DNA from: Clostridia bacterium
Lineage (GTDB): Bacteria > Bacillota > Clostridia > Oscillospirales > Acutalibacteraceae
Direction of reading: 5' to 3'
Assembly: GCA_017936045.1 (NCBI GenBank)
Contig: JAGBGJ010000042.1
Span: 1-41,893 of the forward strand
DNA: 41,893 nucleotides
Part shown: positions 561 to 29,398 of the stretch, in pieces
Position numbering within the stretch: position 1 is the first letter of the stretch
Layout of the letters: each line of letters starts with the position of its first letter
Translations under genes and position numbers: made by a program
Notes under the pieces: model-generated
What the model was told of the DNA's origin: nothing
The model's database searches: none
What the model saw: only the letters and a program-made list of their open reading frames with translations

Positions 561-715
561 TAGAAAAATCAAAAAATGAATTTAGTGGCAAAAAAGTAAA
601 AATAATGCTTTTCTTTTTGGTTGATATGTGATATAATACTACATATTAACCATAATAGTTGATTATTATTATAATTTTTCAACAATTTTTCGGCTCTATG
701 CAAAGGAGGATAACT

Positions 716-1627
716 ATGAGTTACAAGCCCGACAACAAAAACTTAAGCCCCGATTATAAGTTTGTTTGGGGTGATGAGTTCGACGGCGATACCCTTAATC
801 CCGAAAAATGGACCTTGCGCCTAAAAATGGGTGGAAACGAAAGGGTCAAGGTTTCATCCGACCCCGACACAATCTATGTGAAAGATGGTAAGCTTCATCT
901 TATTGCCCACAAAATGGAAGATGGAACATACAAGGTTCCCACATCGGTTATAACACAGGATACAATGAACTTTAAGTATGGCTATGCCGAAATAAAGGCA
1001 AAGGTTCCTTATATGAATGGTGTGTGGCCCTCCTACTGGACACAGTCCACCGCTAACCGCCATATGGCATCACTCCTTCCTGCAGAGAATAAAAAGGTTA
1101 TGGCAGAGGTTGATATTTTTGAAATATTTGCAAACAACCGCGTTGCCGCAAACTACATAAAATGGGTGCTCGATAAGGATGAAGAAAATCCCGAAAGACC
1201 CCGCACCTGGTACTATGCAAATGCTTTCCGTACCAAGGCAAAAACCTTTACCGAGGAAGAGTTCAAAACCATTAACGATGAATATCATATTTACGGTTAT
1301 GAATGGACCGAGGATTTCATAAGAATGTATTTCGATGGCGAGGTTTATGCCGAATTCCAAATTAAAGAGAACTACACAAAGAACGATACCGATGAATACT
1401 TTGAGGATACCGTTCCCATTTATAACGATAGAACAGGCGCCGATATGAGCTGCTTCCACGACCCGCAGTATTTGATTTTCAATAATCACTTATTCGACCA
1501 GGGAGTATCCACAGCCAGTACATCTGTTACCGAGTTTCCTGAATTCACCTCTGCCACCTATTCCATTGAATATTGCAGAGTTTTTAAGAAGGATGGAGTC
1601 GGTGATTTCGCAATAAAAACAAAATAG
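716..1627 (+). CDS. Glycoside hydrolase family 16 (beta-glucanase/laminarinase-like), stand-alone catalytic domain without signal peptide
   Basis: AAAGGAGG lies 7 nt before ATG 716; the track start at 659 is an AT-rich upstream extension. GH16 blocks are present: FVWGDEFDG, GVWPSYW, the catalytic strand EVDIFE (1106-1123) and DPQYLIFNNHLF. The N-terminus MSYKPDNKNLSPDYK is not hydrophobic. Confidence 0.85.
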   Translation: MSYKPDNKNLSPDYKFVWGDEFDGDTLNPEKWTLRLKMGGNERVKVSSDPDTIYVKDGKLHLIAHKMEDGTYKVPTSVITQDTMNFKYGYAEIKAKVPYMNGVWPSYWTQSTANRHMASLLPAENKKVMAEVDIFEIFANNRVAANYIKWVLDKDEENPERPRTWYYANAFRTKAKTFTEEEFKTINDEYHIYGYEWTEDFIRMYFDGEVYAEFQIKENYTKNDTDEYFEDTVPIYNDRTGADMSCFHDPQYLIFNNHLFDQGVSTASTSVTEFPEFTSATYSIEYCRVFKKDGVGDFAIKTK

Positions 1628-1642
1628 AAAGGGAGAAAAATT

Positions 1643-1876
1643 ATGGAGAAAAGAACAAACAAAATTATTTCTCTTGTTCTTGCAATATCCTTATTGCTTT
1701 CAATGTTCACCGTAAATATGTTTGTTTCGGCTGAAGATATTGCAATTTGGGATGGTTCAAGAACAGCCCCCACCGAAGGCGCGGTACTGCACTTGACCCG
1801 TATAAAATTACAAACGGCGCCGAGCTTGCACACGTTATCGTGTCCGGTGGCGGAGCAAACACCTATTATCAGTTGA
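1643..1876 (+). CDS. N-terminal fragment (signal peptide plus start of module 1) of the giant GH16 protein, cut off by a frameshift
   Basis: GGGAG RBS precedes ATG 1643. MEKRTNKIISLVLAISLLLSMFTVNMFVSAEDIAIWDGSRTAPTEG has a Sec signal (VSA/ED) and the module-opening WDG..P..G motif. After ~1783 the homologous sequence continues in the frame of ORF 1747..8613. Confidence 0.6.
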   Translation: MEKRTNKIISLVLAISLLLSMFTVNMFVSAEDIAIWDGSRTAPTEGAVLHLTRIKLQTAPSLHTLSCPVAEQTPIIS

Positions 1877-4800
1877 CAAAGGACATCTACCTTAACGATG
1901 TTGATAAAATCAACTGGACTACAGGTGTGCCCGCTGATGGCTATACACCTAATTCTTGGTATGAAGTTTGGCTAACCAACGATAAGCTTGGCGGTTCCGA
2001 CTTCCAGGGCATCATCAACGGTAACGGACACGTTATTTACGGTCTTTACTACGAAGAAAATCCTGCTACTTATCAGATTTATCAAGAGGGTGCAGCCTTA
2101 ATTCCCAGAGTTAAAGAGGGTGGAGATGCTACCATTGTAAATCTTGGAATGGACTATGTGTATGTTCATGATAACTGTACGGCTTCTGCTTTCGTAGCCG
2201 TAACAATGGGTGCGGGTACAACAATTAATATTGATAGTTGCTATGTGGGCGCCAATGCCACACTTAAAGCTGCCAATGCCGGTGCGTTCCGTGGTTATGC
2301 AAGGGAATCCAGCGGCGGTTCAATTACTAACTGCTATACACTTGCTACAACAGTAGGCACCACTTCTGACGGACTTTCTGCTTACAACTGGGAATCTTCC
2401 GGCGACCAGCTTTTAATTGCTAACTGCTACAATGCAAACGGTGCTATTGCTTCAAACCATAGTGATACCGGCTATTACGCAGTTGTAGAAAATTGCTATG
2501 AAACCGAAGCCAGTTTATTCAGCGAAGGCAATACACTTCTTGTTGCAGAAAATATGCAGGGCACAGATGTTTTCACAAATGAAAACAAGATGACAGGGCT
2601 CAACACAAGCAATAAGTATGTTGCTACAGAAACCTATCCTATACTTAAGGCATTTATAGATGATGCCGAGGAACCCGTAGAACCCGAGATTCCCGATTAC
2701 GAGGTTTGGAGCGGAAATTCTGTAGAACCCACCGAAACCGATGATAAAGGCAATATCCTTATTAATAATGCCGAAGAGCTTGCATATATTATTGAAAACG
2801 GCGGTGGAGCAGGTAATAACTACAAGCTCACTACCGATATCTATCTCAACTATCTTAATATGATTGATTGGACCACAGGTAACGCTATTGGTTCTTATCG
2901 CATAAACTCTTGGAAAGACAGTGTTGCCTTCCAGGGTAATATCGATGGCGATGGCTTTGTTGTTTATGGTCTTTATATTAAGAAGAACGGTACTCCTGGC
3001 TGGGGCTTTAGCGGTCAGGGACTTATCCCCAGAGTTGAAGCAGGCGCCAGCGTAAGTGTAACCGCACTTGGTATTGACTATGCCTATGTTGCAGGTGTAA
3101 ACGGAGCATCGGCCTTTGTAGGCTTTGCAGGAACACAAAACGCAAATGTAAGAGCAAATGTTACTATTGATAAATGTTATGTTGGCGAAAATGTTGTATT
3201 AACAGGTAATGATGCCGGAGCATTCCGCGGCGGCGCATATGAATCCAACACAACAATTACCAATTCTTATTCTTTAGCAACCTTAAACGGTGCAACTACT
3301 AAGGGCCTTATTGGTAACCACTGGAATGTAAACGTAGCTATAGAAAACAGCTTTAACGCCAAGGGCGCTATAACCAGTGATGTTTATGAGTGGCCAAACA
3401 TTGCCGCTAACCTTAAAAACGTTTATGCTACCGATTCAGGAAAGTACACCAGCGAAGTAACACAGCTTACTGCCGAGAATATGAAGGGCTACGATGTACT
3501 TAAGAATGCTTCCAAAATGCCCAACCTTAACGCAGGCGGCGCATTCTATGCAACCGAAGGTTATCCTGTTCTTCGCGTATTCCTTGCAAAAACAAATCCC
3601 GAACTTTTAAAGGTTTGGGATGGCGCATCCAAAACACAGCCTGCAGGCGAGGGAAATGAAACTTCTCCCTATCTTGTATCTAACGGTGCCGAGCTTGCTT
3701 GGGTAATTTCCAACTGCAAGAACGGCGAAAACATTAAACTTACCGATGATATTTATCTTAATCTGCTCGATAAAATCAACTGGGCAACCGGCGAAGCCAA
3801 TGAGAGCTACACCCCCAACACTTGGATTAGTGATGTAGGCTTTAACGGTAATATCGATGGTGATGGTCATATAGTTTACGGTGTTTACTATAACGCAGGC
3901 CTTACTACCGACCAAATGACCGAAGGCTGGGATTCTCCCGCAGCACTTATCCCCGGTGTTGCAAACGGCGCTAACATTACCATTCAAAAGCTTGGCGTTG
4001 ATAATATGTTTATCAATGCAAATAGCGTGGCTTCTGCTTTTGTAGGTCTGGCCGGTAACAGCAGCGCAAACACCGATGCCGACAGAACCATAATTACCAT
4101 AGACCAATGCTTTGTTGGCTCACATGTAGATGTAACTGCATTTTCCGCAGGTGTATTCCGCGGCTTCTCTAAGAACAACGGAATGTATATCTACAATTCT
4201 TATAATCTCGGTAAATTCCGTTCCAATGCCGATAAAGCATCCGATATAGATGCCGGCACTTATGACTACAGATTCTCTTGGTTTGTAGCAAACAGCTGGG
4301 GACTTAAAGATGAGCTCTTTATAGAAAACTGCTATAATGCTACAGGCGCTATATTTAAGGGCAGCTGGGCAGTGCTTCATTCTCAAATTGTAAACAGCTA
4401 TGCCGCAGGTCTTACTCAGGATAAGGATGGCGATGGCGTTGCAGAAGAGGTTTGGTACTCTGCTGCAGGAAACACTCCTTTAACCGAAGACCAAATGAAG
4501 GGTAAGGATGTTTTCTCTGCTTCTGCCAAAATGCCCCTACTTAACTCCAAGGGTATGTATGTGGCTCGCGCAGGTTATCCACTGCTTAAGGTATTCGTAG
4601 GCGAAGCTGCTCAAATGCCCGAGGGTGTGTGGGATGGTTATAGCGTAGCCAAGCCCGCAGGTCTTGGAACAATTGTCAGCCCTTATCTTATTGCAACTCC
4701 TGCAGAGCTTGCATGGGCCATTTCTAACGGCGGCGGAGCTGATATGTATTTCTTACTTACAGCTGATATTTATCTAAACGATGTTTCTAAGATTAATTGG

Positions 4801-7800
4801 CTTACAGGTGAGGTAGCAGAGGATTATGCCCCCAACACCTGGTATAACAATGTGGCCTTCCAGGGCAATCTCGATGGTAACGGACACGTAGTATACGGTC
4901 TTTACTATGAAGATGAGCAAGAGTCTATGACTTGGGGCTACAATGGTAAGGGTCTTATCCCCAGAGTTAATCTTGGCACAAACGTTACGGTTAAAAGACT
5001 TGGTGTTGATAAGTCTTATATTTCCGGTAGAAACGGTGCTTCTGCCTTTGTAGGCTTTATTGGAGCATTAAACGACTCTCAAGCAACAACAGATTACGCA
5101 AACCTTACTATCGACCAGTGTTATGTTGGTGCTGATGTTGCAATTATTGCCAATCAGGCAGGCGCACTCCGCGGCGGCGTTAAGGGCGGAAACACAACAA
5201 TTACCAACAGCTACTCATTAGCACAGCTTACTACAGTTGGAGCTAACGGTACAAAGGGTCTTGCCGCTAACCTTTGGTCAGCTTACTTAACGGTTAAAAA
5301 TTCCTATAATGCAACCGATGCTATTACAACCGATGAATATATGAGTGGTTGCTTTACCTTTAGTGGTGCTTACGCCATAGATGCAGGTGCATATTATAAT
5401 AGTGTATATGTAGTTGTTGCAGACAAGATGCAGGGTACAGATGCACTTAAAAACGTACTTAAAATGCCATACCTCGATGCACAAAACCGCTTTATTGCAA
5501 CCGAAGGCTATCCTGTACTTCGTGCTTTTGAAAAGGCACAGTCAGGCGGCGAAGGTGGAGAAGGTGGAGAAGAGCCCGAAGCACCCACTGTGGATATTTG
5601 GGATGGTCAAACCCATACCGAACCTACCGCAACCGATAGCGAAGGCAATATCCTTATTGCAAACGGTGCCGAGCTTGCTTGGGTAATTGAAAACGGCGGT
5701 GCAGCCGATAAAACCTATAAATTAACTGCTGATATCTACCTTAACGATATTACAAAAATTAACTGGGCAACAGGTGAAGCAAAAGATGGATATACACCTA
5801 ACCAGTGGCTCCCAAACAAAGCTTTCCAAGGAACCATTAACGGTGATGGATATGTAGTTTACGGACTCTATTCTAAGGTGGATACCGATGCGTATGTTTT
5901 CGGATATTTAGGTCAGGGACTTATTCCCAGAGTAAATAACGGAACAACTGCTAATATTACCTCTCTCGGTGTCGATAAGGCTTATATCGTAGGACCTAAC
6001 GCGGCATCTGCCTTTGTTGGTTTCTTAGGACCCGAAAAGTATGATGAGACAGTAGAATATGCTACAGTTAATATCGACCAATGTTATGTTGGTGCAGATG
6101 TTTATATGGAATCCTTCTGTGCAGGTGCATTCCGCGGCGGTAACTACAGGGGCTATACCAACATTACCAACTGTTATTCACTCGGTACGGTTGTAAGCCG
6201 TGAATCGAATACAGATGGATTTGTCGGCGGTCTTTGGTCGGCAGGTGTTACAGTATATAACTCCTTTAATGCAAAAGGTTCTCTTTGCCACATATGGTCA
6301 AACTTTACCGCAGGCGGCAACAACTATGCAACCGGTTGGGATGAAGACAAGACTGCCGCAGGCGAGGGCTTAGTAGCCTACCGTGCAGATAAAATAGATG
6401 CCGCTAATATGCAGGGCCTTGATGTGTTCTCAAATGAAGCTAAAATGCCCAAACTTAATTCAACCGGCGTTTATGTTGCAACAAGGGGTTACCCCATGCT
6501 TAGCGTATTTGCTAGACGCACCAACCCCGAACTCTTTAAGTATTGGGATGGTAAAACTCAGACAGCACCCAAGGGCGAAGGTACCGAAGCTTCACCCTAT
6601 CTAATTTCTAATGGTGCCGAGCTTGCATACATTATTGCAAACGGTGGCGGAGCAGATAAGTATTATAAATTAACCGCAGATATTTACCTCAATGAACTTG
6701 GTAAAATCAACTGGGCAACAGGTGAAGCCAACGATGGCTACACACCTAATGTTTGGAATTTTGAAAACGCAGCATTCGAAGGTAATATCAACGGTAACGG
6801 TTATGTTGTTTATGGTCTCTACTTCAAGACTACAAACGATGCCAGCGCATTCGGCTACTACGGTATCGGTCTTATCCCCAGAGTTAATCTCGGAGCCAGC
6901 GTAACCATTAATTCGCTCGGTGTTGACTACGCTTACTTAAGCGGTGTAAACGGTGCTTCTGCATTCGTAGGCTCCGCAGGCGCTACATCCGGCGGAGATG
7001 ATATATCCTCCAAAGCAAATGTTACTATCGACAAGTGCTATGCAGGTGAAAACGTAACCATTATGGGTCACGATATCGGCGCATTCCGTGGCACAACCTA
7101 CGGCTCGGTTACAACTATTACAAACTCTTACTCTTTGGCAACTCTTGAAGATGTTGAATCCAAAGGTTTTGTTGGTAATCTTTGGGGCGCAACAGTAGTT
7201 GTTGAAAACAGCTTCAATGCAAACGGACCTATCGCTAACGAGAGCTGGCTCTGGACAGATGTCGGCGAAAACTTCAAAAATGTTTACGCTACCGATAACA
7301 CCTTATATGTAGGCGAGGTAACACGCATTACATTAGATGAAATAACGGGTCTTTCGGCACTCTCCAAACTTGCCGGCTTATCAAGCGATATCTTTGTTCC
7401 CGTTGCAGACAAGACTCCCGTTATTAAGGACTTCCTAAAGCTTGCCGCTACAAAGGTAGAAACCGACTATATCGGATATACACATTCACAGTTTGCCGAT
7501 TACTACACAACTGCAGATGCTTCCAAGTATTTCTGGCGTTATAATCGTATTGATGCAAATGCCGATGAAGATATGGATATTTGCGACCTTGTTTATGCCA
7601 CACTTAACTATAACAGCGGCAACGGCAGCCTTGATGTTGATAACGATAATCAGGCCACAAGATTTGATATCACCGTTCTCCGCAAGGCATTAATTGGCGA
7701 TACCGATTATGAAGAGCCTCCAGTAAAGCTTGCTCCCTACAACTCTAATCTCACAGGCACCTACAACCTAGTATGGGGCGATGAGTTCAACGGCACCTAT

Positions 7801-8613
7801 CTCGATGCCGATAAGTGGGGAGTATACTCCAAGATGGAAGCCAATCCCGAAAAGGGCTATTTCAACGATAAGGATGAAAATGTTATTGATGTTGTAGATG
7901 GCAACCTTAAGCTTACCGCTTATAAGGATGCCGATGGCAACTATCATAGCCCCACCTCGGTAGTTACCCAAAACACCATGAACTTCAAGTACGGTTATGT
8001 TGAAATCCGTGCTAAGCTTCCCCTTCAGGTAGGTGTTTGGTCCTCTTTCTGGGCTAAATCGGTAGCCGATAAGTCAGATGTTAAGAGCGTTGTTTCTACC
8101 GATAACCATGTTGTTGGTGAGGTAGATATCTTCGAAGTATTCGATAGAAACCGTGTTTGCGGTAACATCATTAAGTGGGACCCCAATGTCCTTGAAGGCG
8201 AAACAACCACCTGGTATCCCACCGCTATGAATACCGCACAGTGTGTAGTACCTCCCGATGATGGTCTGTTCCACATCTACGCTTATGAGTGGACACCCAC
8301 CGAAATCAAGTTCTACTACGATGGTGTTATGTATGCCCGCTTCGACATTACCGAGCCTTGGCTCAACCCCGGCGAAGATGGAAAGGGTAAAGATGGATAC
8401 GAGTATAATATTAAGGATGAAACAGGTTCTGATATGTCCTGCTACCAAGACCCGCAGTACCTTATCTTTAATAACCACCTCTTCTATGAGGATGTATCTA
8501 ACGCTAATACTCACATTAACATCAGTAACCCCGACTTCGAATCGGCCGATTATTTAATCGACTATTGCCGAGTATATCAGCTTGAAGGTCAGGGAGAAAT
8601 CTATACAAAATAA
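1747..8613 (+). CDS. Giant modular protein body: six tandem beta-helix-like modules, a dockerin-like segment and a C-terminal GH16 domain (intact gene would be 1643..8613 after frameshift repair)
   Basis: This is a 2288-aa ORF. Real homology starts at GTALDPYKITNGAELAHVIV (~1783). Upstream of that the frame reads MGWFKNSPHRRR, which is out-of-frame junk. The catalytic EVDIFE is at 8119-8136, and a terminator follows the stop. Confidence 0.9.
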   Translation: MGWFKNSPHRRRGTALDPYKITNGAELAHVIVSGGGANTYYQLTKDIYLNDVDKINWTTGVPADGYTPNSWYEVWLTNDKLGGSDFQGIINGNGHVIYGLYYEENPATYQIYQEGAALIPRVKEGGDATIVNLGMDYVYVHDNCTASAFVAVTMGAGTTINIDSCYVGANATLKAANAGAFRGYARESSGGSITNCYTLATTVGTTSDGLSAYNWESSGDQLLIANCYNANGAIASNHSDTGYYAVVENCYETEASLFSEGNTLLVAENMQGTDVFTNENKMTGLNTSNKYVATETYPILKAFIDDAEEPVEPEIPDYEVWSGNSVEPTETDDKGNILINNAEELAYIIENGGGAGNNYKLTTDIYLNYLNMIDWTTGNAIGSYRINSWKDSVAFQGNIDGDGFVVYGLYIKKNGTPGWGFSGQGLIPRVEAGASVSVTALGIDYAYVAGVNGASAFVGFAGTQNANVRANVTIDKCYVGENVVLTGNDAGAFRGGAYESNTTITNSYSLATLNGATTKGLIGNHWNVNVAIENSFNAKGAITSDVYEWPNIAANLKNVYATDSGKYTSEVTQLTAENMKGYDVLKNASKMPNLNAGGAFYATEGYPVLRVFLAKTNPELLKVWDGASKTQPAGEGNETSPYLVSNGAELAWVISNCKNGENIKLTDDIYLNLLDKINWATGEANESYTPNTWISDVGFNGNIDGDGHIVYGVYYNAGLTTDQMTEGWDSPAALIPGVANGANITIQKLGVDNMFINANSVASAFVGLAGNSSANTDADRTIITIDQCFVGSHVDVTAFSAGVFRGFSKNNGMYIYNSYNLGKFRSNADKASDIDAGTYDYRFSWFVANSWGLKDELFIENCYNATGAIFKGSWAVLHSQIVNSYAAGLTQDKDGDGVAEEVWYSAAGNTPLTEDQMKGKDVFSASAKMPLLNSKGMYVARAGYPLLKVFVGEAAQMPEGVWDGYSVAKPAGLGTIVSPYLIATPAELAWAISNGGGADMYFLLTADIYLNDVSKINWLTGEVAEDYAPNTWYNNVAFQGNLDGNGHVVYGLYYEDEQESMTWGYNGKGLIPRVNLGTNVTVKRLGVDKSYISGRNGASAFVGFIGALNDSQATTDYANLTIDQCYVGADVAIIANQAGALRGGVKGGNTTITNSYSLAQLTTVGANGTKGLAANLWSAYLTVKNSYNATDAITTDEYMSGCFTFSGAYAIDAGAYYNSVYVVVADKMQGTDALKNVLKMPYLDAQNRFIATEGYPVLRAFEKAQSGGEGGEGGEEPEAPTVDIWDGQTHTEPTATDSEGNILIANGAELAWVIENGGAADKTYKLTADIYLNDITKINWATGEAKDGYTPNQWLPNKAFQGTINGDGYVVYGLYSKVDTDAYVFGYLGQGLIPRVNNGTTANITSLGVDKAYIVGPNAASAFVGFLGPEKYDETVEYATVNIDQCYVGADVYMESFCAGAFRGGNYRGYTNITNCYSLGTVVSRESNTDGFVGGLWSAGVTVYNSFNAKGSLCHIWSNFTAGGNNYATGWDEDKTAAGEGLVAYRADKIDAANMQGLDVFSNEAKMPKLNSTGVYVATRGYPMLSVFARRTNPELFKYWDGKTQTAPKGEGTEASPYLISNGAELAYIIANGGGADKYYKLTADIYLNELGKINWATGEANDGYTPNVWNFENAAFEGNINGNGYVVYGLYFKTTNDASAFGYYGIGLIPRVNLGASVTINSLGVDYAYLSGVNGASAFVGSAGATSGGDDISSKANVTIDKCYAGENVTIMGHDIGAFRGTTYGSVTTITNSYSLATLEDVESKGFVGNLWGATVVVENSFNANGPIANESWLWTDVGENFKNVYATDNTLYVGEVTRITLDEITGLSALSKLAGLSSDIFVPVADKTPVIKDFLKLAATKVETDYIGYTHSQFADYYTTADASKYFWRYNRIDANADEDMDICDLVYATLNYNSGNGSLDVDNDNQATRFDITVLRKALIGDTDYEEPPVKLAPYNSNLTGTYNLVWGDEFNGTYLDADKWGVYSKMEANPEKGYFNDKDENVIDVVDGNLKLTAYKDADGNYHSPTSVVTQNTMNFKYGYVEIRAKLPLQVGVWSSFWAKSVADKSDVKSVVSTDNHVVGEVDIFEVFDRNRVCGNIIKWDPNVLEGETTTWYPTAMNTAQCVVPPDDGLFHIYAYEWTPTEIKFYYDGVMYARFDITEPWLNPGEDGKGKDGYEYNIKDETGSDMSCYQDPQYLIFNNHLFYEDVSNANTHINISNPDFESADYLIDYCRVYQLEGQGEIYTK
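1748..7440 (+). repeat. Six tandem coding repeats of a ~305-340-aa module (period ~910-1015 nt), diverged at nucleotide level
   Basis: The module-opening Trp codons are at 1748, 2707, 3616, 4630, 5599 and 6544. Each module opens xWDG....P..G.G...SPY.I..GAELA..I..GG....Y.LT.DIYLN..(K)INW.TG and continues F(Q/N)G.I(D/N)G(N/D)GH.VYG(L/V)Y. Rungs of type ID(Q/K)CYVG, ITNSYSLA and ENSFNA follow. Each module closes M.G.D......KMP.LN......AT.GYP.L..F. Confidence 0.85.
7552..7698 (+). other. Dockerin-like module (two EF-hand-type Ca-loop plus helix segments), internal to the giant protein
   Basis: The sequence DANADEDMDICDLVYATL...DVDNDNQATRFDITVLRKALIG contains two 12-residue loops with D/N at positions 1, 3, 5 and 12. 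Each loop is followed by an amphipathic helix, as in type I dockerins. Confidence 0.6.
7762..8610 (+). other. GH16 catalytic domain of the giant protein
   Basis: The blocks LVWGDEFNG, GVWSSFW, EVDIFEVF, HIYAYEWTPTEIKFYYDG and DPQYLIFNNHLF are collinear with gene 716..1627. Confidence 0.85.
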
Positions 8614-8630
8614 TAGATTAAATTTAAAAA

Positions 8631-8660
8631 GCCCATCCGCTTTTGCGGATGGGCTTTTCC
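8631..8660 (+). terminator. Rho-independent terminator of the giant gene
   Basis: GCCCATCCGC tttt GCGGATGGGC forms the hairpin and is followed by TTTTCC. Confidence 0.85.
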
Positions 8661-8661
8661 C

Positions 8662-8690
8662 TTGACACAAAGAGGTTTCAAGGGTAAAAT
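8662..8690 (+). promoter_or_regulatory. sigma-A type promoter of the second modular GH16 gene
   Basis: The sequence is TTGACA, a 17-nt spacer, then TAAAAT. It lies immediately after the preceding terminator. Confidence 0.6.
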
Positions 8691-8757
8691 TAACATATAT
8701 TATATATGAATAGTTTTACACAAAACAATACAAAACTGCGAAAGGGAAAAGAATATT

Positions 8758-11700
8758 ATGAATAAGACTAAACTGTTAAAAATTATTTCCATAATTCTTA
8801 TTATCTCTTTAGCACTAACAGCCTTCACCACCAATATTTCCGCTACCAACACTAATAGCAAGAACGTTTGGGATGGCACCACTTTAGTTCCTAAAGGGGA
8901 GGGCACACAGCAAAGTCCCTTCCTTATTTCAAACGGAGCAGAGCTGGCCTATGTTATTTCCACAGGTGGCGGGGCAGGTAACCACTATAAGCTAACCGCC
9001 GATATCTACCTCAATGAAATTGACAGGGTTAATTGGGCTACCGGCGAGGGGATAGCAGGCTATTCTCCGCTCCCTTGGTACGACAGCGTTGAGTTTCAGG
9101 GTAACATCAACGGTAACGGACATATAGTTTACGGCATCTATTATAATGCAGGGCTCGATACTACCGAAATGGCCGAAGGCTGGAGCACGCCCGTAGGCCT
9201 TATACCCTGCATAAAAAACGGTGCTGCCGTTACGGTGGAAAAGCTTGGTGTTGATAATATGTATATAAATGCCAAGTGTACGGCATCGGCATTTATAGGC
9301 CGCGCAGGTAACAGTAGCGCCACCACCGCAGAATCCAGAACAACAATATATATAGATAAATGCTTTGTAGGCGAAAACGTAGATGTAACGGCCTTTTGTA
9401 CAGGCGTTTTCCGCGGTTATTCAAGAAACAACGGAATTTATATATCCAACTCTTATAATCTCGGTAAATTTCGTTCCAATGCCGACAAGAAAAATGATAT
9501 TGACGGCGGCACTTACGATTATAGGTTTTCTTGGTTTGTGGGAAACACTTGGGGCTTAAACGATGAGCTCTATATAGATTGCTGCTTTAATGCTACTGGC
9601 GCCCTTTTTAAGGGCCACTGGAATACCTTCAAAACAAAAATCACAAATTGCTATGCCGCAGGATTTACCAATGATAAGAACGGCGATGGTGTTGCCGAAT
9701 CTGTTTGGTATTCGGTTGCAGGCGATGTGCCATTGCCAAAGGAAAGAATGCAGGGTATCGATGCCTTGGTGGGAGTGCAAAAAATGCCTGCCATTAATAC
9801 TAACAATGAGTACATTGCAACCGAAGGCTACCCTATTCTTAAGGCCTTTTCGGGGGAAGAGTACGATGATATGGTAGAAATCTCAAAGGTTGATATTTGG
9901 GATGGCTCTGTTGCCGTAACCCTTAGCGGAGAGGGAACCAAAGCCTCACCCTACCTCATCACAAACGGCTCGGAATTAGCCTATGCAATAATCAGCGGCG
10001 GCGCCGATAAGCTGTATAAACTTACAAAGGATATTTACCTTAACGATATAAATAAAATCAACTGGAAAACGGGGGAAGTACAGCCCGGCTACACCCCCAA
10101 TTCTTGGTTCGAAAACATACCATTCAAGGGCGCAATAGATGGCGGCGGACATATTGTTTACGGCCTCTATTATAAAACCCCCGAAGCTAACTCGGACTGG
10201 GGCTACTACGGAGCAGGCCTTGTACCCACAGTAAACGCGGGCGAAACCCTTATAATAACCGCGCTCGGCATAGAAAATGCCTTTATCAGCGGAGTAAACG
10301 GCGCTTCGGCGTTTGTTGGCTTCGCGGGCCAAAAAGAAGCCCAAAGCAGGGCAAATGTTATTGTGGATAAATGCTTCGCAGGGGGAAATGTAACCCTTAT
10401 CGGTCACGATGTAGGCGCCCTTCGTGGCGGCACATATAATGCCAAAACAACCATTACAAATTCCTATTCCTTAGCCACGCTAAAGGGAACCTCTACAAAC
10501 GGTCTTTTAGGTAACCTTTGGGATGCAACCGTGGTGGCGGAAAACTGCTTTAACGCAAACGGCGCCATTACAACCGATACATATCTTTGGCCCGATGTTG
10601 CCGAAAACTTTAAAAATGTTTATGCCACAAGCTCGGCAAACTACACTTCCGAGGTTGCCGAGCTTACACGCCTGCAAATGTATGGACTTACCGCAGCGGC
10701 AACAATGTCCTTGCCCGATAATATCTTTGTTTCGGTAGAAAACCGTGTGCCGCAGCTCAAAGATTTCTTTAAATATTCCGAGGATAAAAATGGTAAAGAT
10801 TTTATCGGTTATGAGTATTCTGACTTTTGCAAATACTTTACCACTGTAAGTGCCGATGCTCATTTTTGGCGTTATGATGATATAGATATAAACGGCGATC
10901 GCAGCACCAATATTTGCGACCTCGTTTTCGTAACAAGAAGGCATAACAGCGGCAAAAATACAATCCATCTGGATAGCGATAATGAAACCACCTCATTTGA
11001 TATATCCATTCTTCGCAAAGCCCTTATTGGCGATACCGATTATGAAAATAAACCTATAAGATTTACCCCCTATAACAACATTACAAATAAATATGACTAC
11101 GTTTGGGGAGATGAATTTGAAGATAATTATCTCAATTCCGATAAATGGAGCATATATCCAAAAATGGGCAGTAACCCTTCGGGTGGTTTTATCTGCGATA
11201 AGGATGAAAAGGTTATCGGAGTTGAGAATGGAAGACTTCGCCTTACAGCGTATAAGGATGATGAGGGCATATACCATGCCCCAACCTCAGTGGTAACCAG
11301 GGATACCATGAACTTTACGTACGGTTATGTGGAAATCCGCGCTAAATTGCCGCTCCAGACAGGAGTTTGGTCCTCTTTTTGGGCGCTGACCGTGTCGGAC
11401 AGCGCATCTATCGGAAGACTCGCTACCCCTAAGTGCGAAAACACAGCCGAGGTTGATATGTTCGAGGTTTTCAATACCAACCAGGTTTGCGGCGGAATAA
11501 TAAAATGGGCAGAAAACGAGTGGTATCCAAAGAGTAAGGATGGCCTACAAAGGGTAGTTCTTACCGATAATGAATATCATGTTTTCGGCTATGAGTGGAG
11601 CCCTAGTGAAATTGCAATGTACTGCGATGGTGTGCTTTATGCCCGCTTTGATATTACCGAAAACTGGACAAATCCCGGCGAATACGGTAAGGCTAAAGAG

Positions 11701-11919
11701 GGCTGGACCTATTATAATGTAGATGAAACCGGCTATGATATGTCCTGCTTTAACGACCCGCAGTATCTTATCTTCAATAACCACCTTTTCTACGAAGGGG
11801 TGTCCAACGCAAACCCCTATATTAATATAAGCAACCCCGACTTTAAGTCGGCCGATTATTTAATTGATTACTGCCGTGTATATCAAAAGTCCGGCGTTGG
11901 CGATATCGTTACAAAGTAA
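8758..11919 (+). CDS. Secreted modular protein: signal peptide, two beta-helix-like modules, a dockerin-like segment and a C-terminal GH16 domain (paralog of 1643..8613)
   Basis: GGGAAAAG RBS-like sequence precedes the start. The signal peptide is MNKTKLLKIISIILIISLALTAFTTNISA/TN. Modules start at Trp codons 8869 and 9898. The catalytic EVDMFE is at 11449-11466, and a terminator follows. Confidence 0.9.
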   Translation: MNKTKLLKIISIILIISLALTAFTTNISATNTNSKNVWDGTTLVPKGEGTQQSPFLISNGAELAYVISTGGGAGNHYKLTADIYLNEIDRVNWATGEGIAGYSPLPWYDSVEFQGNINGNGHIVYGIYYNAGLDTTEMAEGWSTPVGLIPCIKNGAAVTVEKLGVDNMYINAKCTASAFIGRAGNSSATTAESRTTIYIDKCFVGENVDVTAFCTGVFRGYSRNNGIYISNSYNLGKFRSNADKKNDIDGGTYDYRFSWFVGNTWGLNDELYIDCCFNATGALFKGHWNTFKTKITNCYAAGFTNDKNGDGVAESVWYSVAGDVPLPKERMQGIDALVGVQKMPAINTNNEYIATEGYPILKAFSGEEYDDMVEISKVDIWDGSVAVTLSGEGTKASPYLITNGSELAYAIISGGADKLYKLTKDIYLNDINKINWKTGEVQPGYTPNSWFENIPFKGAIDGGGHIVYGLYYKTPEANSDWGYYGAGLVPTVNAGETLIITALGIENAFISGVNGASAFVGFAGQKEAQSRANVIVDKCFAGGNVTLIGHDVGALRGGTYNAKTTITNSYSLATLKGTSTNGLLGNLWDATVVAENCFNANGAITTDTYLWPDVAENFKNVYATSSANYTSEVAELTRLQMYGLTAAATMSLPDNIFVSVENRVPQLKDFFKYSEDKNGKDFIGYEYSDFCKYFTTVSADAHFWRYDDIDINGDRSTNICDLVFVTRRHNSGKNTIHLDSDNETTSFDISILRKALIGDTDYENKPIRFTPYNNITNKYDYVWGDEFEDNYLNSDKWSIYPKMGSNPSGGFICDKDEKVIGVENGRLRLTAYKDDEGIYHAPTSVVTRDTMNFTYGYVEIRAKLPLQTGVWSSFWALTVSDSASIGRLATPKCENTAEVDMFEVFNTNQVCGGIIKWAENEWYPKSKDGLQRVVLTDNEYHVFGYEWSPSEIAMYCDGVLYARFDITENWTNPGEYGKAKEGWTYYNVDETGYDMSCFNDPQYLIFNNHLFYEGVSNANPYINISNPDFKSADYLIDYCRVYQKSGVGDIVTK
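8869..10773 (+). repeat. Two tandem copies of the same ~320-aa module family as in 1748..7440
   Basis: Module 1 resembles giant-gene module 3 (YNLGKFRSNADK.NDIDGGTYDYRFSWFV). Module 2 resembles giant-gene modules 2 and 6 (NCFNANGAITTDTYLWPDVAENFKNVYAT). Confidence 0.8.
10885..11031 (+). other. Dockerin-like module of the second modular protein
   Basis: The sequence is DINGDRSTNICDLVFVTRRH...LDSDNETTSFDISILRKALIG. The first loop fits D-x-N-x-D..D; the second loop is more degenerate. Confidence 0.5.
11092..11916 (+). other. GH16 catalytic domain of the second modular protein
   Basis: The blocks YVWGDEFED, GVWSSFW, EVDMFEVF, HVFGYEWSPSEIAMYCDG and DPQYLIFNNHLF are present. Confidence 0.85.
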
Positions 11920-11941
11920 TTTTATCATTAAATCAAAAGCA

Positions 11942-11969
11942 CCCCTCCGCTACGGCGGAGGGGTTTCTT
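11942..11969 (+). terminator. Rho-independent terminator
   Basis: CCCCTCCG ctacgg CGGAGGGG forms the hairpin and is followed by TTTCTTG. Confidence 0.8.
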
Positions 11970-11981
11970 GTTAATTTCTAA

Positions 11982-12010
11982 TTGAAAATATAATAATAAT
12001 ATGATAAAAT
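11982..12010 (+). promoter_or_regulatory. sigma-A type promoter upstream of lepA
   Basis: The sequence is TTGAAA, a 17-nt spacer, then TAAAAT with a TG-extended -10 (TGATAAAAT). Confidence 0.5.
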
Positions 12011-12073
12011 AAATTGATTATGATATTTCATCTTCGCCTTGGCGGTAGATGAGGTGATTAAGGAGAGAAACAA

Positions 12074-13879
12074 GTGTCCCATCCTCTTGATAAAATTAGA
12101 AACTTTTGCATAGTTGCTCATATCGACCACGGTAAGTCCACCCTTGCCGATAGGCTTTTAGAGCTTACTCAAACCGTGTCTGAACGCGATATGGAAGAAC
12201 AGCTGCTCGATAGTATGGATTTAGAGCGCGAGCGTGGAATTACCATTAAGGCCCACGCCGTTACCCTTTATTATAAGGCGTCCGATGGCGAGGAGTATGA
12301 GCTCAACCTTATTGATACCCCCGGCCATGTAGACTTTAACTACGAGGTTTCTCGTTCACTCGCCGCTTGCGAGGGCGCGGTGCTTATTGTAGATGCCTCA
12401 CAGGGAATAGAGGCTCAAACCCTTGCCAATACCTACCTTGCGGTAGACCACGGCCTAGAGCTGCTCCCCGTTATTAATAAAATTGACCTGCCCTCTGCCG
12501 ACCCCGACAGAGTTATAAACGAAATTGAAGAAATTATAGGAATCCCCGCGCAAGATGCACCTAAAATTTCGGCTAAAACCGGTGTTAATATCGAAGAGGT
12601 GATGGAGCGCATTGTTACCGATATACCCGCCCCCACTGGGGATAGAACCGCACCCCTTTCGGCCCTTATTTTCGACTCCTACTATGATGCTTATAAGGGT
12701 GTTATTGTTTATTTCAGGGTTGTTGGCGGCAAAATAAAAGCAGGCGACAAAATTAAAATGATGGCAACAGGCGCCACCTTCGATGTTGTAGAGGTTGGCC
12801 GCAAGGGGGCCACTTCCCTTGAAATCTGCGACTGTCTTGAAGCAGGCGAGGTAGGCTACCTTGCCGCATCCATTAAAACGGTAGGCGAGGCCAGAGTAGG
12901 CGATACCATCACCCTTGCCGATAACCCCTGCACAGAAGCCTTAGCCGGCTACCGTAAGGTAAACCCCGTTGTTTTCTGCGGAATTTACCCTGCCGATGGT
13001 GCCCGATATACCGACCTTCGCGAAGCACTGGAAAAACTCCAGCTTAACGATGCCTCACTCCTTTTCGAGCCCGAAACCTCTTCGGCCCTCGGCTTTGGCT
13101 TCCGTTGCGGTTTCTTAGGCCTTCTTCATATGGAAATTATCCAAGAAAGGCTCGAGCGCGAATATAATCTCGACCTTGTAACCACCGCGCCCAGCGTTAT
13201 TTATAAGTTCGATTTAAACACGGGCGAAACCGTTTATGTCGATAACCCCACAAACTACCCCGACCCTGCCATAATTCAGCAAGCCTACGAGCCTGTGGCC
13301 GATGTTCATATTTATAGCCCCAGCGAATATGTCGGCGCTATAATGGAGCTTTGCCAGCAGCGCCGCGGCGAATATACCGATATGAAATATATGGGCGACC
13401 GCGTTGATATCCACTATATTATGCCAATGGGCGAAATTGTCTACGACTTTTTCGATGCACTAAAATCCCGCACCAAGGGCTATGCCAGCTACGATTACGA
13501 GCCTAAGGGCTACAGCCCATCCAAACTTGTAAAGCTCGATGTTATGCTTGCAGGCGATGTTGTAGATGCCCTGTCCTTTATCGTGTTTGTTGATAACGCC
13601 TACCCAAGAGCCCGCAGAATTGCCGAAAAGCTTAAGGATTATATACCCCGCCAGCTTTTCGAGGTTCCCATTCAGGTGGCTGTAGGCGGCAAAATTATTG
13701 CCCGTGAAACCGTTAAAGCAATGCGCAAGGATGTACTTGCAAAGTGCTACGGCGGCGATATAACCCGTAAGAAAAAACTTCTTGAAAAACAAAAAGAAGG
13801 TAAGAAGCGTATGCGCCAGTTAGGCTCGGTAGAAGTACCGCAGGAAGCCTTTATGGCAGTGCTTAAATTAGACGAGTAA
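12074..13879 (+). CDS. lepA: Translation elongation factor 4 (LepA/EF4)
   Basis: GTG start with AAGGAGAG 6 nt upstream. The N-terminus is [30 protein letters not shown] and NKID GTPase motifs and the LepA C-terminal region are present. Confidence 0.97.
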
Positions 13880-18256: not shown

Positions 18257-19501
18257 TTATCTAATTTGACCGTTTCCGTTAATAATATACTTGTACGAGG
18301 TTATCTCACTTAGTCCCATAGGACCTCTTGCGTGGAGCTTTTGGGTTGAAATTCCGATTTCTGCACCAAGCCCAAACTCGCCGCCATCGGTAAAGCGGGT
18401 AGAAGCATTAACGTAAACTGCCGCCGAATCAACAGCCGATACAAAATAATTTGCATTATCACTGTTTTCGGTAATAATAACCTCGCTGTGGTGGGTTGAG
18501 TATTTGTCAATATGCTCTACCGCAGCATAAACATCATCAACAACCCTAACCGAAATGGTGTAGCCTAAAAATTCTTTTGCATAGTCCTCTTCGGTGGCTG
18601 GTACAGCGTAAGGGAGAATGTCGCAAACCTTTTGGCAGCCCTTAATTTCCACGCCGGCATTTTTTAGCTTTTCGCAAATTACGGGCAAAGCCTTTTGGGC
18701 AATATTTTTGTGTACAAGCAAGCTTTCAAGCGCATTGCAAACCGAAGGACGCTGAACCTTTCCGTTAAATACAATTTCCCTTGCCATATCTAAATCTGCA
18801 GATTCATCAACAAAAGCGTGGCAGTTTCCCGTTCCTGTTTCAATAACGGGTACGGTGGAGTTTTCCACCGCTGCGCGAATAAGTCCTGCGCCGCCGCGGG
18901 GAATAAGCACATCAACATAACCGTTTAAGGTCATAAGGTCGGTTGCAGACCTGCGCGAGGTATCGGTTACAAGCTGGATTAAATCCTTTGGAAGACCTGC
19001 CTTGCTAATAGCATTCCTCATAATTTCGGCGGTTTTCATATTGGAATTAATTGCTTCCTTTCCGCCGCGCAAAATAACTGCGCTGCCTGCCTTTAGGGCA
19101 ATTGCCGCCGCATCCGAGGTAACATTGGGCCTTGCCTCGTAAATAATGCCAATAACACCCATGGGAACGCTTATTTTTTTAATTTTAATGCCGTTTGGCC
19201 GTACTGTTTCATTTAAAACTATGCCAACGGGGTCCAAAAGCTCGCAAAGGGCCGAAACACCATCGGCCATACCTTTTATTCTGTCCTCATTCAATGTAAG
19301 TCGGTCAAGCATAGAGGGGCTCATACCGTTAGCCTTTGCAGTCTCAAGGTCTAGAGCATTTGCCCTAATAATTTCAGCCGAATGTTCGCAAAGGGCCTTT
19401 GCAATGGCTTTGAGTGCAGTGTTTTTAACTTCGCTTGAGGCTGTAACCAAAGCCTTGGAAGCGGATTTTGCCTTAATACCTAAATCAATTAATGAATTCA
19501 T
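18257..19501 (-). CDS. proA: Gamma-glutamyl phosphate reductase
   Basis: The length is the expected 414 aa. Recognisable blocks include VIGIIYEARPNVT, the NCHAFVDE/ACNA-type region and NASTRFTDGGEFG. Confidence 0.95.
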   Translation of the reverse strand: MNSLIDLGIKAKSASKALVTASSEVKNTALKAIAKALCEHSAEIIRANALDLETAKANGMSPSMLDRLTLNEDRIKGMADGVSALCELLDPVGIVLNETVRPNGIKIKKISVPMGVIGIIYEARPNVTSDAAAIALKAGSAVILRGGKEAINSNMKTAEIMRNAISKAGLPKDLIQLVTDTSRRSATDLMTLNGYVDVLIPRGGAGLIRAAVENSTVPVIETGTGNCHAFVDESADLDMAREIVFNGKVQRPSVCNALESLLVHKNIAQKALPVICEKLKNAGVEIKGCQKVCDILPYAVPATEEDYAKEFLGYTISVRVVDDVYAAVEHIDKYSTHHSEVIITENSDNANYFVSAVDSAAVYVNASTRFTDGGEFGLGAEIGISTQKLHARGPMGLSEITSYKYIINGNGQIR

Positions 19502-23187: not shown

Positions 23188-23868
23188 TTATTCTTCTGCT
23201 TCATTGCTGCCGGTTAAAAATTTAATTGCTCTTTCGGGTGAATCTTTTGAATTGCCCCAAGGCTCATCTTTAAATCTGTAATCAAATTTTTTACAAAACC
23301 AGCTTACATCGGCTTGTAGCGTTTCAAGGTAATCTGCGTTAACCTTTTGTACCAAAGCCTCAAAATCGGCATATTTTCTTTTGTTAAGCACACCCTTGCC
23401 TGCAGTTAAAAATTTGTGGTAATGGTGCATGCAAAAATAACTTTGATTTCTTGTTTTTTCTTCAAAGGCTTTATCCTTATCATAAAGCCAGACTGCCGTT
23501 TCAAACATTTTATCAAAATTATTATTAATTCTGGAACAAACATAACAGCTGTCGTTTATTTTACCTATTTTCTTAAGGCCGTTAACACCGCTTGCCTCCT
23601 TCTTAAGGTGGTCCAGATGGCTTTCAAGCATAAGGGCAAGGCCAAGTCGGTTTTTCCTTTTAAGCATCATTGTAAAATGCTTGTTACAAAAGCCCATTTC
23701 GTTTGTTTTAATGCGTATATCGGGCTCCATCATTGATGCGCCAAGAATAATCTCAAGCTCCTTTTTCTCAAGGCAACGGTACATTTCACAAAAGGGGCAG
23801 CCCTTTTCCTTGTCTTCGGCACAGGCATCAAAAGCCTCATTAACGGGTATAGTATATATTTTTTCCAT
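23188..23868 (-). CDS. Hypothetical Cys/His-rich protein with a duplicated CxxC...CxxH module (probable metal-binding)
   Basis: AAGAGG lies 6-7 nt before ATG 23868, giving MEKIYTIPV. The first motif pair is CPFC (C24, C27) with FCNKH (C61, H64). The second pair is CYVC (C108, C111) with FCMHH (C146, H149). I do not confidently recognise a named family. Confidence 0.7.
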   Translation of the reverse strand: MEKIYTIPVNEAFDACAEDKEKGCPFCEMYRCLEKKELEIILGASMMEPDIRIKTNEMGFCNKHFTMMLKRKNRLGLALMLESHLDHLKKEASGVNGLKKIGKINDSCYVCSRINNNFDKMFETAVWLYDKDKAFEEKTRNQSYFCMHHYHKFLTAGKGVLNKRKYADFEALVQKVNADYLETLQADVSWFCKKFDYRFKDEPWGNSKDSPERAIKFLTGSNEAEE

Positions 23869-23878
23869 ACAAAACCTC

Positions 23879-24808
23879 TTAGAATAATTGTGCCAGCGCA
23901 ACTATGGCCGACATAGTTAGAATAGATAAAAGGGTTGAAAAGGCAACCAGCTTAACCGACAGCTCGGTATCGCGCTCATATTTAACCGAAAATACGGTGG
24001 TTACCGCCGCCACAGGGGCGCTGGCCGCAATAATCAGCGAGATAAGTATTGTTCCGCGAAGCCCAAGGGCAAGCAGTACAAACAAAGCGGTAAGCGGAAC
24101 CAGTATAAGCCTTAAGGCCGAAACTAAATAAACACGCTTATCCTTAAGGGCCGAAAGTATATTACTTCTGGCCAGGTTAAAGCCAATTACCATCATTGCA
24201 ATAGGGGTGTTAAGCGCCGCCATTCCCGAAATAGCCGAAGAAATGGGGGTGGGCAGCTTTACAGAAAAGATAAAGAGTATAAAGCCTATGGTAACCGCTA
24301 TAATTCCGGGGTTAAGTATAAGCTTTCTAAGCGACATTTGACTGTTCTTGCCGCCCATACAAATAATACCGTAGGTCCAAACAAAAACGTTGAACATGGC
24401 AACACAAACCGAACCATAAAAGACACCCTCATTACCAAGCACCGCTTTTTGAAGTGGTATTCCCATATAACCGACATTGGAAAACACCAGTGCAAAGCGC
24501 ATAACAAGTCGGCTTTTTTCTTCGCCGCCACGGAAGACCAATGTGGCAATCACGGCACACACAATTTGTATAGATAAATAGGCAACAACGCAAATAATAA
24601 TTCCACGGAATTTGGTTTTGTCAAAGGAAATATTAAGTGAATTGATAATAAGGCAGGGGGTAACAAAGTTAAGAAGAATATCGCTCATAACCTTGGAGCC
24701 CTCTTCGGTTATAAATCTTCGCTTTTCGCCAATAAAGCCAAAGCCCATAAACACGAAAAGAATAAGCACCTGTATAAATACAGTGTAAAAATTATTTAAA
24801 AAGGTCAT
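23879..24808 (-). CDS. AEC-family transporter (auxin efflux carrier / malate permease-like)
   Basis: About 10 TM segments are present. The N-terminus FIQVLILFVFMGFGFIGEKRRFITEEGSKVMSDILLNFVTPCLI is typical of the AEC family. Confidence 0.85.
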   Translation of the reverse strand: MTFLNNFYTVFIQVLILFVFMGFGFIGEKRRFITEEGSKVMSDILLNFVTPCLIINSLNISFDKTKFRGIIICVVAYLSIQIVCAVIATLVFRGGEEKSRLVMRFALVFSNVGYMGIPLQKAVLGNEGVFYGSVCVAMFNVFVWTYGIICMGGKNSQMSLRKLILNPGIIAVTIGFILFIFSVKLPTPISSAISGMAALNTPIAMMVIGFNLARSNILSALKDKRVYLVSALRLILVPLTALFVLLALGLRGTILISLIIAASAPVAAVTTVFSVKYERDTELSVKLVAFSTLLSILTMSAIVALAQLF

Positions 24809-28792: not shown

Positions 28793-29398
28793 ATGAAAAA
28801 ACTGTTATGCTTAGTTTTAGCCCTTAGTATGCTTTGTCTTTGGGGCTGCGGAACATCTAAAAATGATGCCTCCTCCCAAAATCAAGAAATAAGCGAGGTT
28901 CAAAAAGCCGCCGAAAGCGGAAAACTCAGCGTATCCAAGTTCGGTCTGGGCGCTTCACCCAAAGAGGTTAAGGAGCATTATAAAAAGCTTTCCGATGATT
29001 ACAAGGCTGCCCATAAAGAGGAAACCGAGGAAGACCACATCCACAGCGATGAAAAAATTCCTTTTTACGATTTAGATTTAAAGGGTAAATACACCGAAAT
29101 AGATGTGGCCGACTGTCGCTTTTATTATGAAAATAAAAATGAGGATAAGGGCATTGTGGCAATTGCAACCGATGCCGATGTTTTAGGCTTTAAGGTTGGT
29201 ATCACAACCAAGCAAGAGGTTGAAAGCAGTGTTGGCAAAAAGGGAGAAACCTTTAATGCCACCAAAGATGAAGAAATCTTCCTTGCAGTTTCTATTGAAG
29301 GCCTTATGATTTTCCGTGTTGAATACACCGATACTCTGCTAGACTTCTATTTTTACGATAACACCCTTGTTAATACGGTGCTTAAATCAACAAAATAA
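28793..29398 (+). CDS. Hypothetical lipoprotein
   Basis: MKKLLCLVLALSMLCLWGCGTSK has a signal peptide with a lipobox-like LWGC. I recognise no domain. Confidence 0.7.
   Translation: MKKLLCLVLALSMLCLWGCGTSKNDASSQNQEISEVQKAAESGKLSVSKFGLGASPKEVKEHYKKLSDDYKAAHKEETEEDHIHSDEKIPFYDLDLKGKYTEIDVADCRFYYENKNEDKGIVAIATDADVLGFKVGITTKQEVESSVGKKGETFNATKDEEIFLAVSIEGLMIFRVEYTDTLLDFYFYDNTLVNTVLKSTK

Follow-up and report, generated by a model that had tools for sequence, protein, structure and literature searches.

A window of 41,893 nucleotides from a Clostridia bacterium (contig JAGBGJ010000042.1 of assembly GCA_017936045.1, analysed over its whole length) carries three consecutive genes, here called genes 1 to 3, each with a glycoside hydrolase family 16 (GH16) domain; in genes 2 and 3 this domain is preceded by six and two copies of a long repeated module. 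We found that the module is, by predicted fold and profile comparison, a compact, divergent branch of the GLUG-type β-helix superfamily that no curated model covers, and that a robust, previously unremarked link ties it to one clade of GH16. The locus is neither a new kind of system nor, to judge from the model, the source of a new fold, and represents an uncharacterised, uncurated variant of the multi-modular surface glycoside hydrolases built from GLUG-type modules. As a whole it is best explained, with moderate confidence, as encoding a Sec-secreted GH16 enzyme with a dockerin-type tether and a capturing β-helix arm, at a variable-copy locus between dinB and lepA of an uncultured, Acutalibacteraceae-like Clostridia bacterium of the ruminant hindgut.

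The module family and its link to GH16

The three open reading frames (ORFs) lie on the + strand at 659/716–1627, 1747–8613 and 8758–11919. Module boundaries, drawn from self-alignment of the gene 2 and gene 3 proteins, bear out the count of six and two copies in front of GH16 made in an earlier note on this DNA. Each module is 292–327 amino acids long, and the 305–340 amino acids given in that note are the period with linkers, which measure 11–23 amino acids between modules. Pairwise, the modules of the window are 38–62% identical, far above chance. The genes and their parts are as follows.

716–1627, + strand: gene 1, stand-alone GH16, 303 amino acids, without signal peptide (ORF and Pfam)
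1643–8613, + strand: gene 2, with signal peptide, six β-helix modules, dockerin-like segment and GH16; frameshifted
1748–2655, + strand: gene 2 module 1, crosses the frameshift
2707–3582, + strand: gene 2 module 2
3616–4596, + strand: gene 2 module 3, a variant of 327 amino acids (two insertions) that shares 62% identity with gene 3 module 1
4630–5529, + strand: gene 2 module 4, the one modelled (right-handed parallel β-helix, pLDDT 95.7)
5599–6510, + strand: gene 2 module 5
6544–7434, + strand: gene 2 module 6, whose C-terminal cap is a variant; shares 57% identity with gene 3 module 2
7432–7740, + strand: gene 2 linker element (about 35 amino acids, β-strand-rich) and dockerin-like double F-hand
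7744–8610, + strand: gene 2 GH16 catalytic domain, EVDIFE at 8119–8136
8758–11919, + strand: gene 3, with signal peptide, two modules, dockerin-like segment and GH16; 1,053 amino acids
8869–9849, + strand: gene 3 module 1, resembles gene 2 module 3
9898–10797, + strand: gene 3 module 2, resembles gene 2 module 6
10783–11082, + strand: gene 3 linker element and dockerin-like double F-hand
11080–11916, + strand: gene 3 GH16 catalytic domain, EVDMFE at 11449–11466

The earlier note had left the module family unnamed, and curated resources do not name it either. Single modules gave no meaningful match in Pfam (E up to 10) or NCBIfam, the module profile matched no PDB sequence, and the 28-residue GLUG hidden Markov model (HMM) PF07581 did not match three modules at E up to 10; no well-characterised family was recovered. 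Prediction of a single module was more telling: the AlphaFold2 model of gene 2 module 4, from a 31-sequence alignment, is a right-handed parallel β-helix with a predicted local distance difference test (pLDDT) of 95.7 and a predicted template modelling score (pTM) of 0.94. Searched against the PDB with Foldseek, it had one significant match, 3N6Z (E 1.8e-6, probability 1.0, template modelling (TM) score 0.43), and the weaker matches listed were almost all right-handed parallel β-helices (pectate lyases, fucoidan lyase, SRRP adhesins, tailspikes). Far-off matches of the module profile bear Pfam GLUG (PF07581) and dockerin, and hhalign aligned the eight modules of the window with 12 such GLUG/dockerin proteins at 99.8% probability (E 3.3e-28, 217 columns). 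In sequence, these proteins match 3N6Z (4e-15) as well as the IgA1 proteases of streptococci and Gemella. Since the fold match to 3N6Z and the profile match to GLUG proteins coincide, we place the module in the GLUG-type superfamily, and the first impression of a GLUG-like or parallel-β-helix-like unit was right.

GLUG-type domains (PF07581; 3N6Z; 6XJA/7UVK) are likewise right-handed parallel β-helices. 3N6Z is BACOVA_03286, a 'putative IgA1 protease' of Bacteroides ovatus, and 6XJA/7UVK represent the β-helix region of Gram-positive IgA1 metalloproteases. These domains and the module have the same N-terminal cap, G-x-G-T-x-x-P-Y-x-I-x-N-x-x-E-L ... L-T-x-D-I-x-L-N ... F-x-G-x-(I/F)-D-G-x-G, and the same C-terminal Y-P-x-L cap, and both are found in proteins that are secreted or sit at the surface and that often bear dockerins or Flg_new repeats too. 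The module differs in its rungs, which have degenerated from GG(I/L)VG to ASAFVG, AGAFRG or KGFVGN, in the lack of a PF07581 HMM match, in its compact helix of about 300 amino acids, in its 2–15 tandem copies and in its systematic link to GH16. The GLUG motif has been termed 'of unknown function' (PMC9723798), and in the literature on GLUG we found passing mentions only and no functional study. The adhesin-like GLUG and Flg_new proteins of gut methanogens and Firmicutes, and β-solenoid adhesins (L. reuteri SRRP, 5NY0), are likewise gut β-helix surface modules with a presumed adhesion role, and the Flg_new repeat of the former is also found on transmembrane-anchored relatives of the window modules. 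The array of the window is, by contrast, fused to an enzyme and not to a cell-wall anchor; adhesion is presumed in both.

An exhaustive profile search of 1.84 billion representative proteins (50%-identity cluster level) returned 4,613 module matches at E ≤ 0.001, 1,447 at ≤ 1e-10 and 398 at ≤ 1e-30. Many of these representatives are giants with 2–15 tandem copies, and many exceed 2,000 amino acids. In about 27 of the 147 top representatives the modules are followed, usually after a dockerin-like segment, by GH16, so that this architecture is not unique to the window. Most of the 147 have instead a tail of about 290 amino acids with a Listeria-Bacteroides (Flg_new) repeat and a C-terminal transmembrane anchor; other partners are a metallophosphoesterase with dockerin, a SASA-type carbohydrate esterase, and N-terminal CBM4_9 or S9-peptidase regions. 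Nothing has been published on the module-GH16 architecture. Because the module lacks a curated model, public records read 'hypothetical protein' or just GH16 family protein: the orthologue MBQ5911300.1 is named 'glycoside hydrolase family 16 protein' at NCBI and module-only giants 'hypothetical protein'. At least 4,613 module-matching representatives thus make up a large unannotated protein space.

Scanning GTDB species genomes with the module alignment, we obtained 71 loci, all in uncultured gut metagenome-assembled genomes (MAGs), mostly from the ruminant hindgut; when gene 3 alone was the query protein, the scan confirmed no relative. The MAGs are labelled Clostridia, Acutalibacteraceae, Eubacteriales, Oscillospiraceae, Ruminococcus or uncultured bacterium, the hosts, where named, are cattle (colon), yak (caecum) and sheep (caecum), and some MAGs hold from eight or more to seventeen or more module loci apiece. 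The GH16 clade was detected in 35 of 73 fetched loci, far above chance. Nearly all stand-alone GH16 genes (32/34) have a module-array gene on their own strand within 500 bp, usually at 3–40 bp; in the loci examined, the GH16 gene is the upstream one of the two. Most of these stand-alone genes code for lipoproteins of about 480 amino acids. As the two are fused in some lineages and adjacent in others, modules and GH16 appear to act together.

A recurrent pair consists of a GH16 lipoprotein of about 480 amino acids directly upstream of a giant module-array protein, e.g., L001:4582–6084 and 6102–13753; similar pairs occur at loci L006–L008, L012, L013, L029, L031, L042, L044, L049–L051, L056 and L060. 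The C-terminus of the array protein, where examined (L001 and related representatives), is formed by a Flg_new repeat, a jelly-roll-like region and a transmembrane anchor. GH20 is often the next gene after the pair, and an AraC regulator is often near. At L001:9788–11500 the giant module gene is broken into three ORFs (1,228, 415 and 753 amino acids), probably by frameshifts or mis-assembly in a repetitive gene, a warning that artefacts account for many of the family's 'fragments' in databases. AraC-type regulators (28/104) and GH20 (9/104) are enriched among the immediate neighbours of module loci; the window locus has neither.

The locus of the window is syntenic between dinB and lepA in four MAG species, with LepA 97% identical and with varying gene content. 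A DinB-type gene also flanks the locus in L003 and L004, so that the insertion site of the GH16 array is fixed between dinB and lepA. The arrays compare as follows.

Window: GH16, then six modules-dockerin-like segment-GH16, then two modules-dockerin-like segment-GH16
L004: additional bare GH16 (12101–13006) between the two long genes
L005: additional bare GH16 (7155–8051) between long genes; five modules instead of six
L003: two long genes (six and five modules), bare GH16 (18393–19334), then the two-module gene

The GH16 array therefore gains and loses genes between species. The window has no extra bare GH16, nor any remnant of one in the 144-nucleotide gap before its two-module gene.

Between species, modules at the same position are 70–84% identical versus 35–57% off the diagonal. 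The modules are thus old and individually constrained rather than homogenised spacers. The gene 3 orthologue P0149 is 67% identical. Recent repeat expansion or concerted evolution can be set aside, given 38–62% identity among paralogous modules and 70–84% among positional orthologues.

Gene 2 requires a repair. ATG 1643 starts a typical signal peptide and then 'WDGSRTAPTEG', in a frame different from that of the long ORF, which goes on as 'GTALDPYKITNGAELA' in a second frame. The L003 orthologue runs through the break as 'WDGSRTAPTGGSGTAIDPYKITNGAELA', and therefore one base is missing from gene 2 at about 1780–1782 (GGC^GCGGTACT). With it restored, the product has 2,323 amino acids, in line with the approximate 2,320 of the earlier note. 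This single-base deletion (window 1775–1785) parts the signal peptide from a body of 2,288 amino acids. There is no homopolymer at the site, and the deletion either arose in assembly or marks a very recent pseudogene. That gene 2 is a pseudogene in this genome, as the split from its signal peptide and the non-homopolymeric site would allow, seems to us possible though doubtful: the other 6.8 kb form one open frame in which six modules, dockerin-like segment and catalytic motif are intact, and the orthologues in L003, L004 and L005 as well as P0123 (2,322 amino acids, 78% identical) are unbroken.

GH16 domains and their substrate

All three genes score 39.7–40.5 bits with the PF00722 GH16 HMM, well above the cut-off of 22. 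The catalytic E-x-D-x-x-E strands are intact and stand where they had first been read (EVDIFE at 1106–1123 in gene 1, EVDIFE and EVDMFE as listed for genes 2 and 3), and the blocks WGDEF, GVW(P/S)S(Y/F)W and DPQYLIFNNHLF are indeed common to all three. Among 17 aligned members of the GH16 family, E131, D133 and E136 are invariant. The profile of these 17 matches 44 GH16 sequences of the PDB over about the first 200 of its 289 positions, best 6XOF/6XQF (7.6e-27), followed by the O-glycanase 6T2N (9e-26) and laminarinases. Kappa-carrageenase, the top NCBIfam match, was rejected at 45 bits against a cut-off of 350.

The best solved relatives are thus laminarinases and O-glycanases of GH16 subfamily 3 (6XOF/6XQF, ZgLamC 4CRQ, PtLam 8XPH, 6T2N), which have in common with the window domains the Pfam GH16 match and the E-x-D-x-x-E motif of β-bulge type. 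The window domains differ from them in being about 25% identical and in having their own insertion and their own DPQYLIFNNHLF block. The finger 3 three-tryptophan motif of GH16_3, W-P-x-x-W ... W-P-x-x-G-E-I-D (PMC7419316), is incomplete: two tryptophans are present (GVWPSYW / GVWSSFW), and the third (G-W-P-x-x-G-E-I-D), with the W-P before the catalytic strand, is absent in comparison with 6XOF.

By default, β-1,3 or mixed-linkage glucan would be the substrate. An alternative is a host glycan containing N-acetylhexosamine (HexNAc), of the mucin-type poly-N-acetyllactosamine (poly-LacNAc) kind, instead of a plant or fungal β-glucan, which would make the locus part of a mucus-foraging surface apparatus. 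It draws on the O-glycanase 6T2N being among the top three solved relatives, and on the evolution of GH16_3 O-glycanases from β-glucanases (PMC7419316). Moreover, GH20 is the commonest enzyme among the immediate neighbours of the paralogous loci, other module arrays bear a sialate-O-acetylesterase-type SASA domain with BNR proteins nearby, and the ruminant MAGs with a named source come from colon and caecum instead of rumen. However, the closest solved relatives are mostly laminarinases, the GH20 evidence stems from paralogous loci and not from that of the window, and a GH16 family without the third tryptophan may belong to neither group. We regard a host glycan as a minority possibility. If it is the substrate, animal-hindgut Acutalibacteraceae would possess, beside the recently proposed mucinolysome, a second kind of machinery that harvests glycans at the surface.

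Gene 1 is the bare domain, as had been read before. Its likeliest start is ATG 716, six bases past AGGAGG, and its product starts exactly at the GH16 domain boundary. The orthologues in L003, L004 and L005 are 84–87% identical. Like gene 1, these orthologues and P0075-type proteins are stand-alone GH16 domains without a signal peptide, and they open with the Y-x-P...L-x-G-x-Y linker that also stands behind the dockerin-like segment of the fused genes. An endo-acting GH16 inside the cell would be unusual.

Dockerin-like segment and probable role of the array

The dockerin-like segment noted in genes 2 and 3 is present in both, between modules and GH16. It starts with a strand-rich element of about 35 amino acids, YIGY..S.F..YFT....S.YFWRY, found in both long genes and all homologues, followed by two loop-helix repeats with D or N at positions 1, 3, 5 and 12 and a conserved LRKALIG helix. 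Both calcium loops of gene 2 are canonical (DANADEDMDICD and DVDNDNQATRFD); in gene 3 only loop 1 (DINGDRSTNICD) is, with His occupying position 1 of loop 2. PF00404 matches all nine aligned homologous segments, each time below threshold. The matches among PDB sequences, weak as they are (E 0.014–4.7), are dockerins or dockerin-like modules in 16 of 16 cases, and hhalign pairs the segment with canonical dockerins from related proteins and lineages over both repeats (93%, E 3e-7). The AlphaFold model of the gene 3 segment consists of three strands and two helices, at 44–55 and 71–81, one behind each loop; the best of five models has a pLDDT of 79.6 and the others are lower. Since cohesin-dockerin complexes are documented in Limousia, a genus of Acutalibacteraceae (PMC12997984), tethering of the gene 2 and gene 3 products by this segment is plausible.

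As secreted glycoside hydrolases that carry a double F-hand calcium-binding module, these proteins resemble the dockerin-bearing (PF00404) enzymes of cellulosomes, amylosomes and mucinolysomes, among which the Limousia mucinolysome is a documented cohesin-dockerin system from the same family. In contrast to those systems, the dockerin-like segment of the window is internal, sub-threshold and preceded by the conserved strand element, and GH16 is not among the reported enzymes of the Limousia mucinolysome (PMC12997984).

We propose that the products of genes 2 and 3 would be secreted by the Sec pathway via a cleavable signal peptide, that GH16 would act as a retaining endo-β-glycanase, and that the dockerin-like segment would tether the protein beside the catalytic domain. 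The array would then project as a long, semi-rigid, non-catalytic arm, which may bind or capture the target glycan or surface, or at least space the enzyme from it, and thereby feed the adjoining GH16. A surface location is indicated by the signal peptides of genes 2 and 3, and by the C-terminal transmembrane anchor of most other family members.

Several observations weigh against this proposal. The TM-score of the module to 3N6Z is just 0.43, and the GLUG motif is, as cited above, termed 'of unknown function'. Gene 1, with no signal peptide, fits poorly into a purely extracellular system, and gene 2, frameshifted here, may be inactive. The remaining points concern the dockerin-like segment: its PF00404 scores are below the cut-off of 22.9 (20.4–21.0 bits in gene 3, 10.5 bits in gene 2); its best PDB E-value is 0.014, compared with 7e-10 for canonical dockerins of related proteins; Foldseek with the moderate-confidence model retrieved no dockerin and no significant match; and no cohesin is encoded in the window, the source genomes not having been searched for one. 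In view of these results, the label 'cellulosome-type' given to the locus in the earlier note was overstated.

The same results, together with the first calcium ligand lost from loop 2 of gene 3 and the internal position of the segment behind a strand element not seen in canonical dockerins, leave some room for a segment that binds no cohesin and serves as a calcium-stabilised linker or is a degenerate relic, the proteins being released or held otherwise. We think this somewhat unlikely, as the hhalign match to dockerins of the lineage extends over both repeats, the D/N ligands and the LRKALIG helix are kept in all homologues, and cohesin-dockerin systems occur in the same bacterial family.

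The position of the segment also bears on the array. The candidate anchor lies between array and GH16; if it does anchor the protein, the array hangs free at the N-terminus as an arm instead of serving as a stalk that holds the enzyme out. The picture of a catalytic domain at the end of a long stalk is therefore not supported, the only candidate anchor adjoining GH16. The modules are distal, too, in the relatives that have a transmembrane anchor. Conservation of at least 90% over 541 module instances is limited to I, L, F and G and, in the DIYLN cap at the N-terminus, to D46 and N50; as these positions are structural and form no catalytic constellation, the array is probably non-catalytic.

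We favour a substrate-capturing or surface-adhering arm over its main competitor, in which the modules would be inert spacers, a rigid stalk that sets distance and has no binding specificity. Spacers would account for the structural nature of the conserved positions, for the short linkers and for the freely varying copy number, which ranges over 2–15 among proteins and five to six among orthologues. However, the array does not stand between the dockerin-like anchor candidate and the enzyme, the modules retain a position-specific sequence from species to species, which suggests module-specific surfaces, and the modules are the sole distal domain in the transmembrane-anchored relatives. We consider inert spacers improbable, and all the more so modules that are enzymes.

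Many β-helix proteins are carbohydrate-active enzymes, and pectate/pectin lyases, fucoidan lyase and alginate lyases are among the second-tier Foldseek matches, which could make genes 2 and 3 multi-catalytic members of a new polysaccharide lyase or hydrolase family; this is very unlikely, as the lyase matches are weak (E 0.014 or worse, TM 0.2–0.3) and reflect a shared fold only, no conserved charged set exists beyond D46 and N50, and we know of no precedent for six to fifteen tandem catalytic copies. The suggestion that the module could be a new catalytic unit was therefore rejected: D46 and N50 are the only conserved polar residues in the 541 instances.

The capturing-arm reading may be taken further, tentatively. 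The modules might constitute a new, uncurated glycan- or surface-binding β-helix family, similar to carbohydrate-binding modules (CBMs) or adhesins. With their dedicated GH16 clade they might form an undescribed cell-surface apparatus for glycan capture, whose arms are fused via a divergent dockerin or membrane-anchored beside a GH16 lipoprotein, which is massively expanded in uncultured Acutalibacteraceae of the ruminant hindgut and which may target host mucin-type glycans. The placement in the GLUG superfamily and the tight coupling to GH16 lead to a testable idea, that of a substrate-capturing arm, for a functionally unexamined domain family, and a single module together with the GH16 domain offers a concrete experimental target.

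Transcription signals and surroundings

The signals around the three genes are the following.

646–675, + strand: promoter-like TTAACC-18-TATAAT (10/12) upstream of gene 1; consensus match only
8629–8660, + strand: hairpin resembling an intrinsic terminator, 3' of gene 2, GCCCATCCGC-TTTT-GCGGATGGGC followed by TTTTC; read from the sequence
8662–8690, + strand: promoter-like TTGACA-17-TAAAAT for gene 3, 11/12, the best match of the region
11941–11964, + strand: terminator-like hairpin 3' of gene 3, 10 pairs, 8 of them G-C

The gap between genes 1 and 2 measures 15 nucleotides and holds a ribosome-binding site and no terminator, so that the two genes are probably co-transcribed as one operon, of which 646–675 is the likely promoter. 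Of the statement that the genes are separated by terminators of their own, the hairpins behind genes 2 and 3 stand and none is found between genes 1 and 2; the promoter assigned to gene 3 is borne out. The automatic hairpin scan passed over 8629–8660, where the T tail is only four long.

As had been remarked, the GH16 array is the only clearly accessory region of the window, the remainder being housekeeping. Rfam and tRNA scans of the window found nothing. Upstream, positions 1–483 on the - strand encode the N-terminal part of a DinB/ImpB-type DNA polymerase IV. Two further genes appear unrelated to the GH16 locus: one encodes a DUF6062 protein (23188–23901, - strand), the other is a 201-amino-acid ORF without a Pfam match (28793–29398, + strand).

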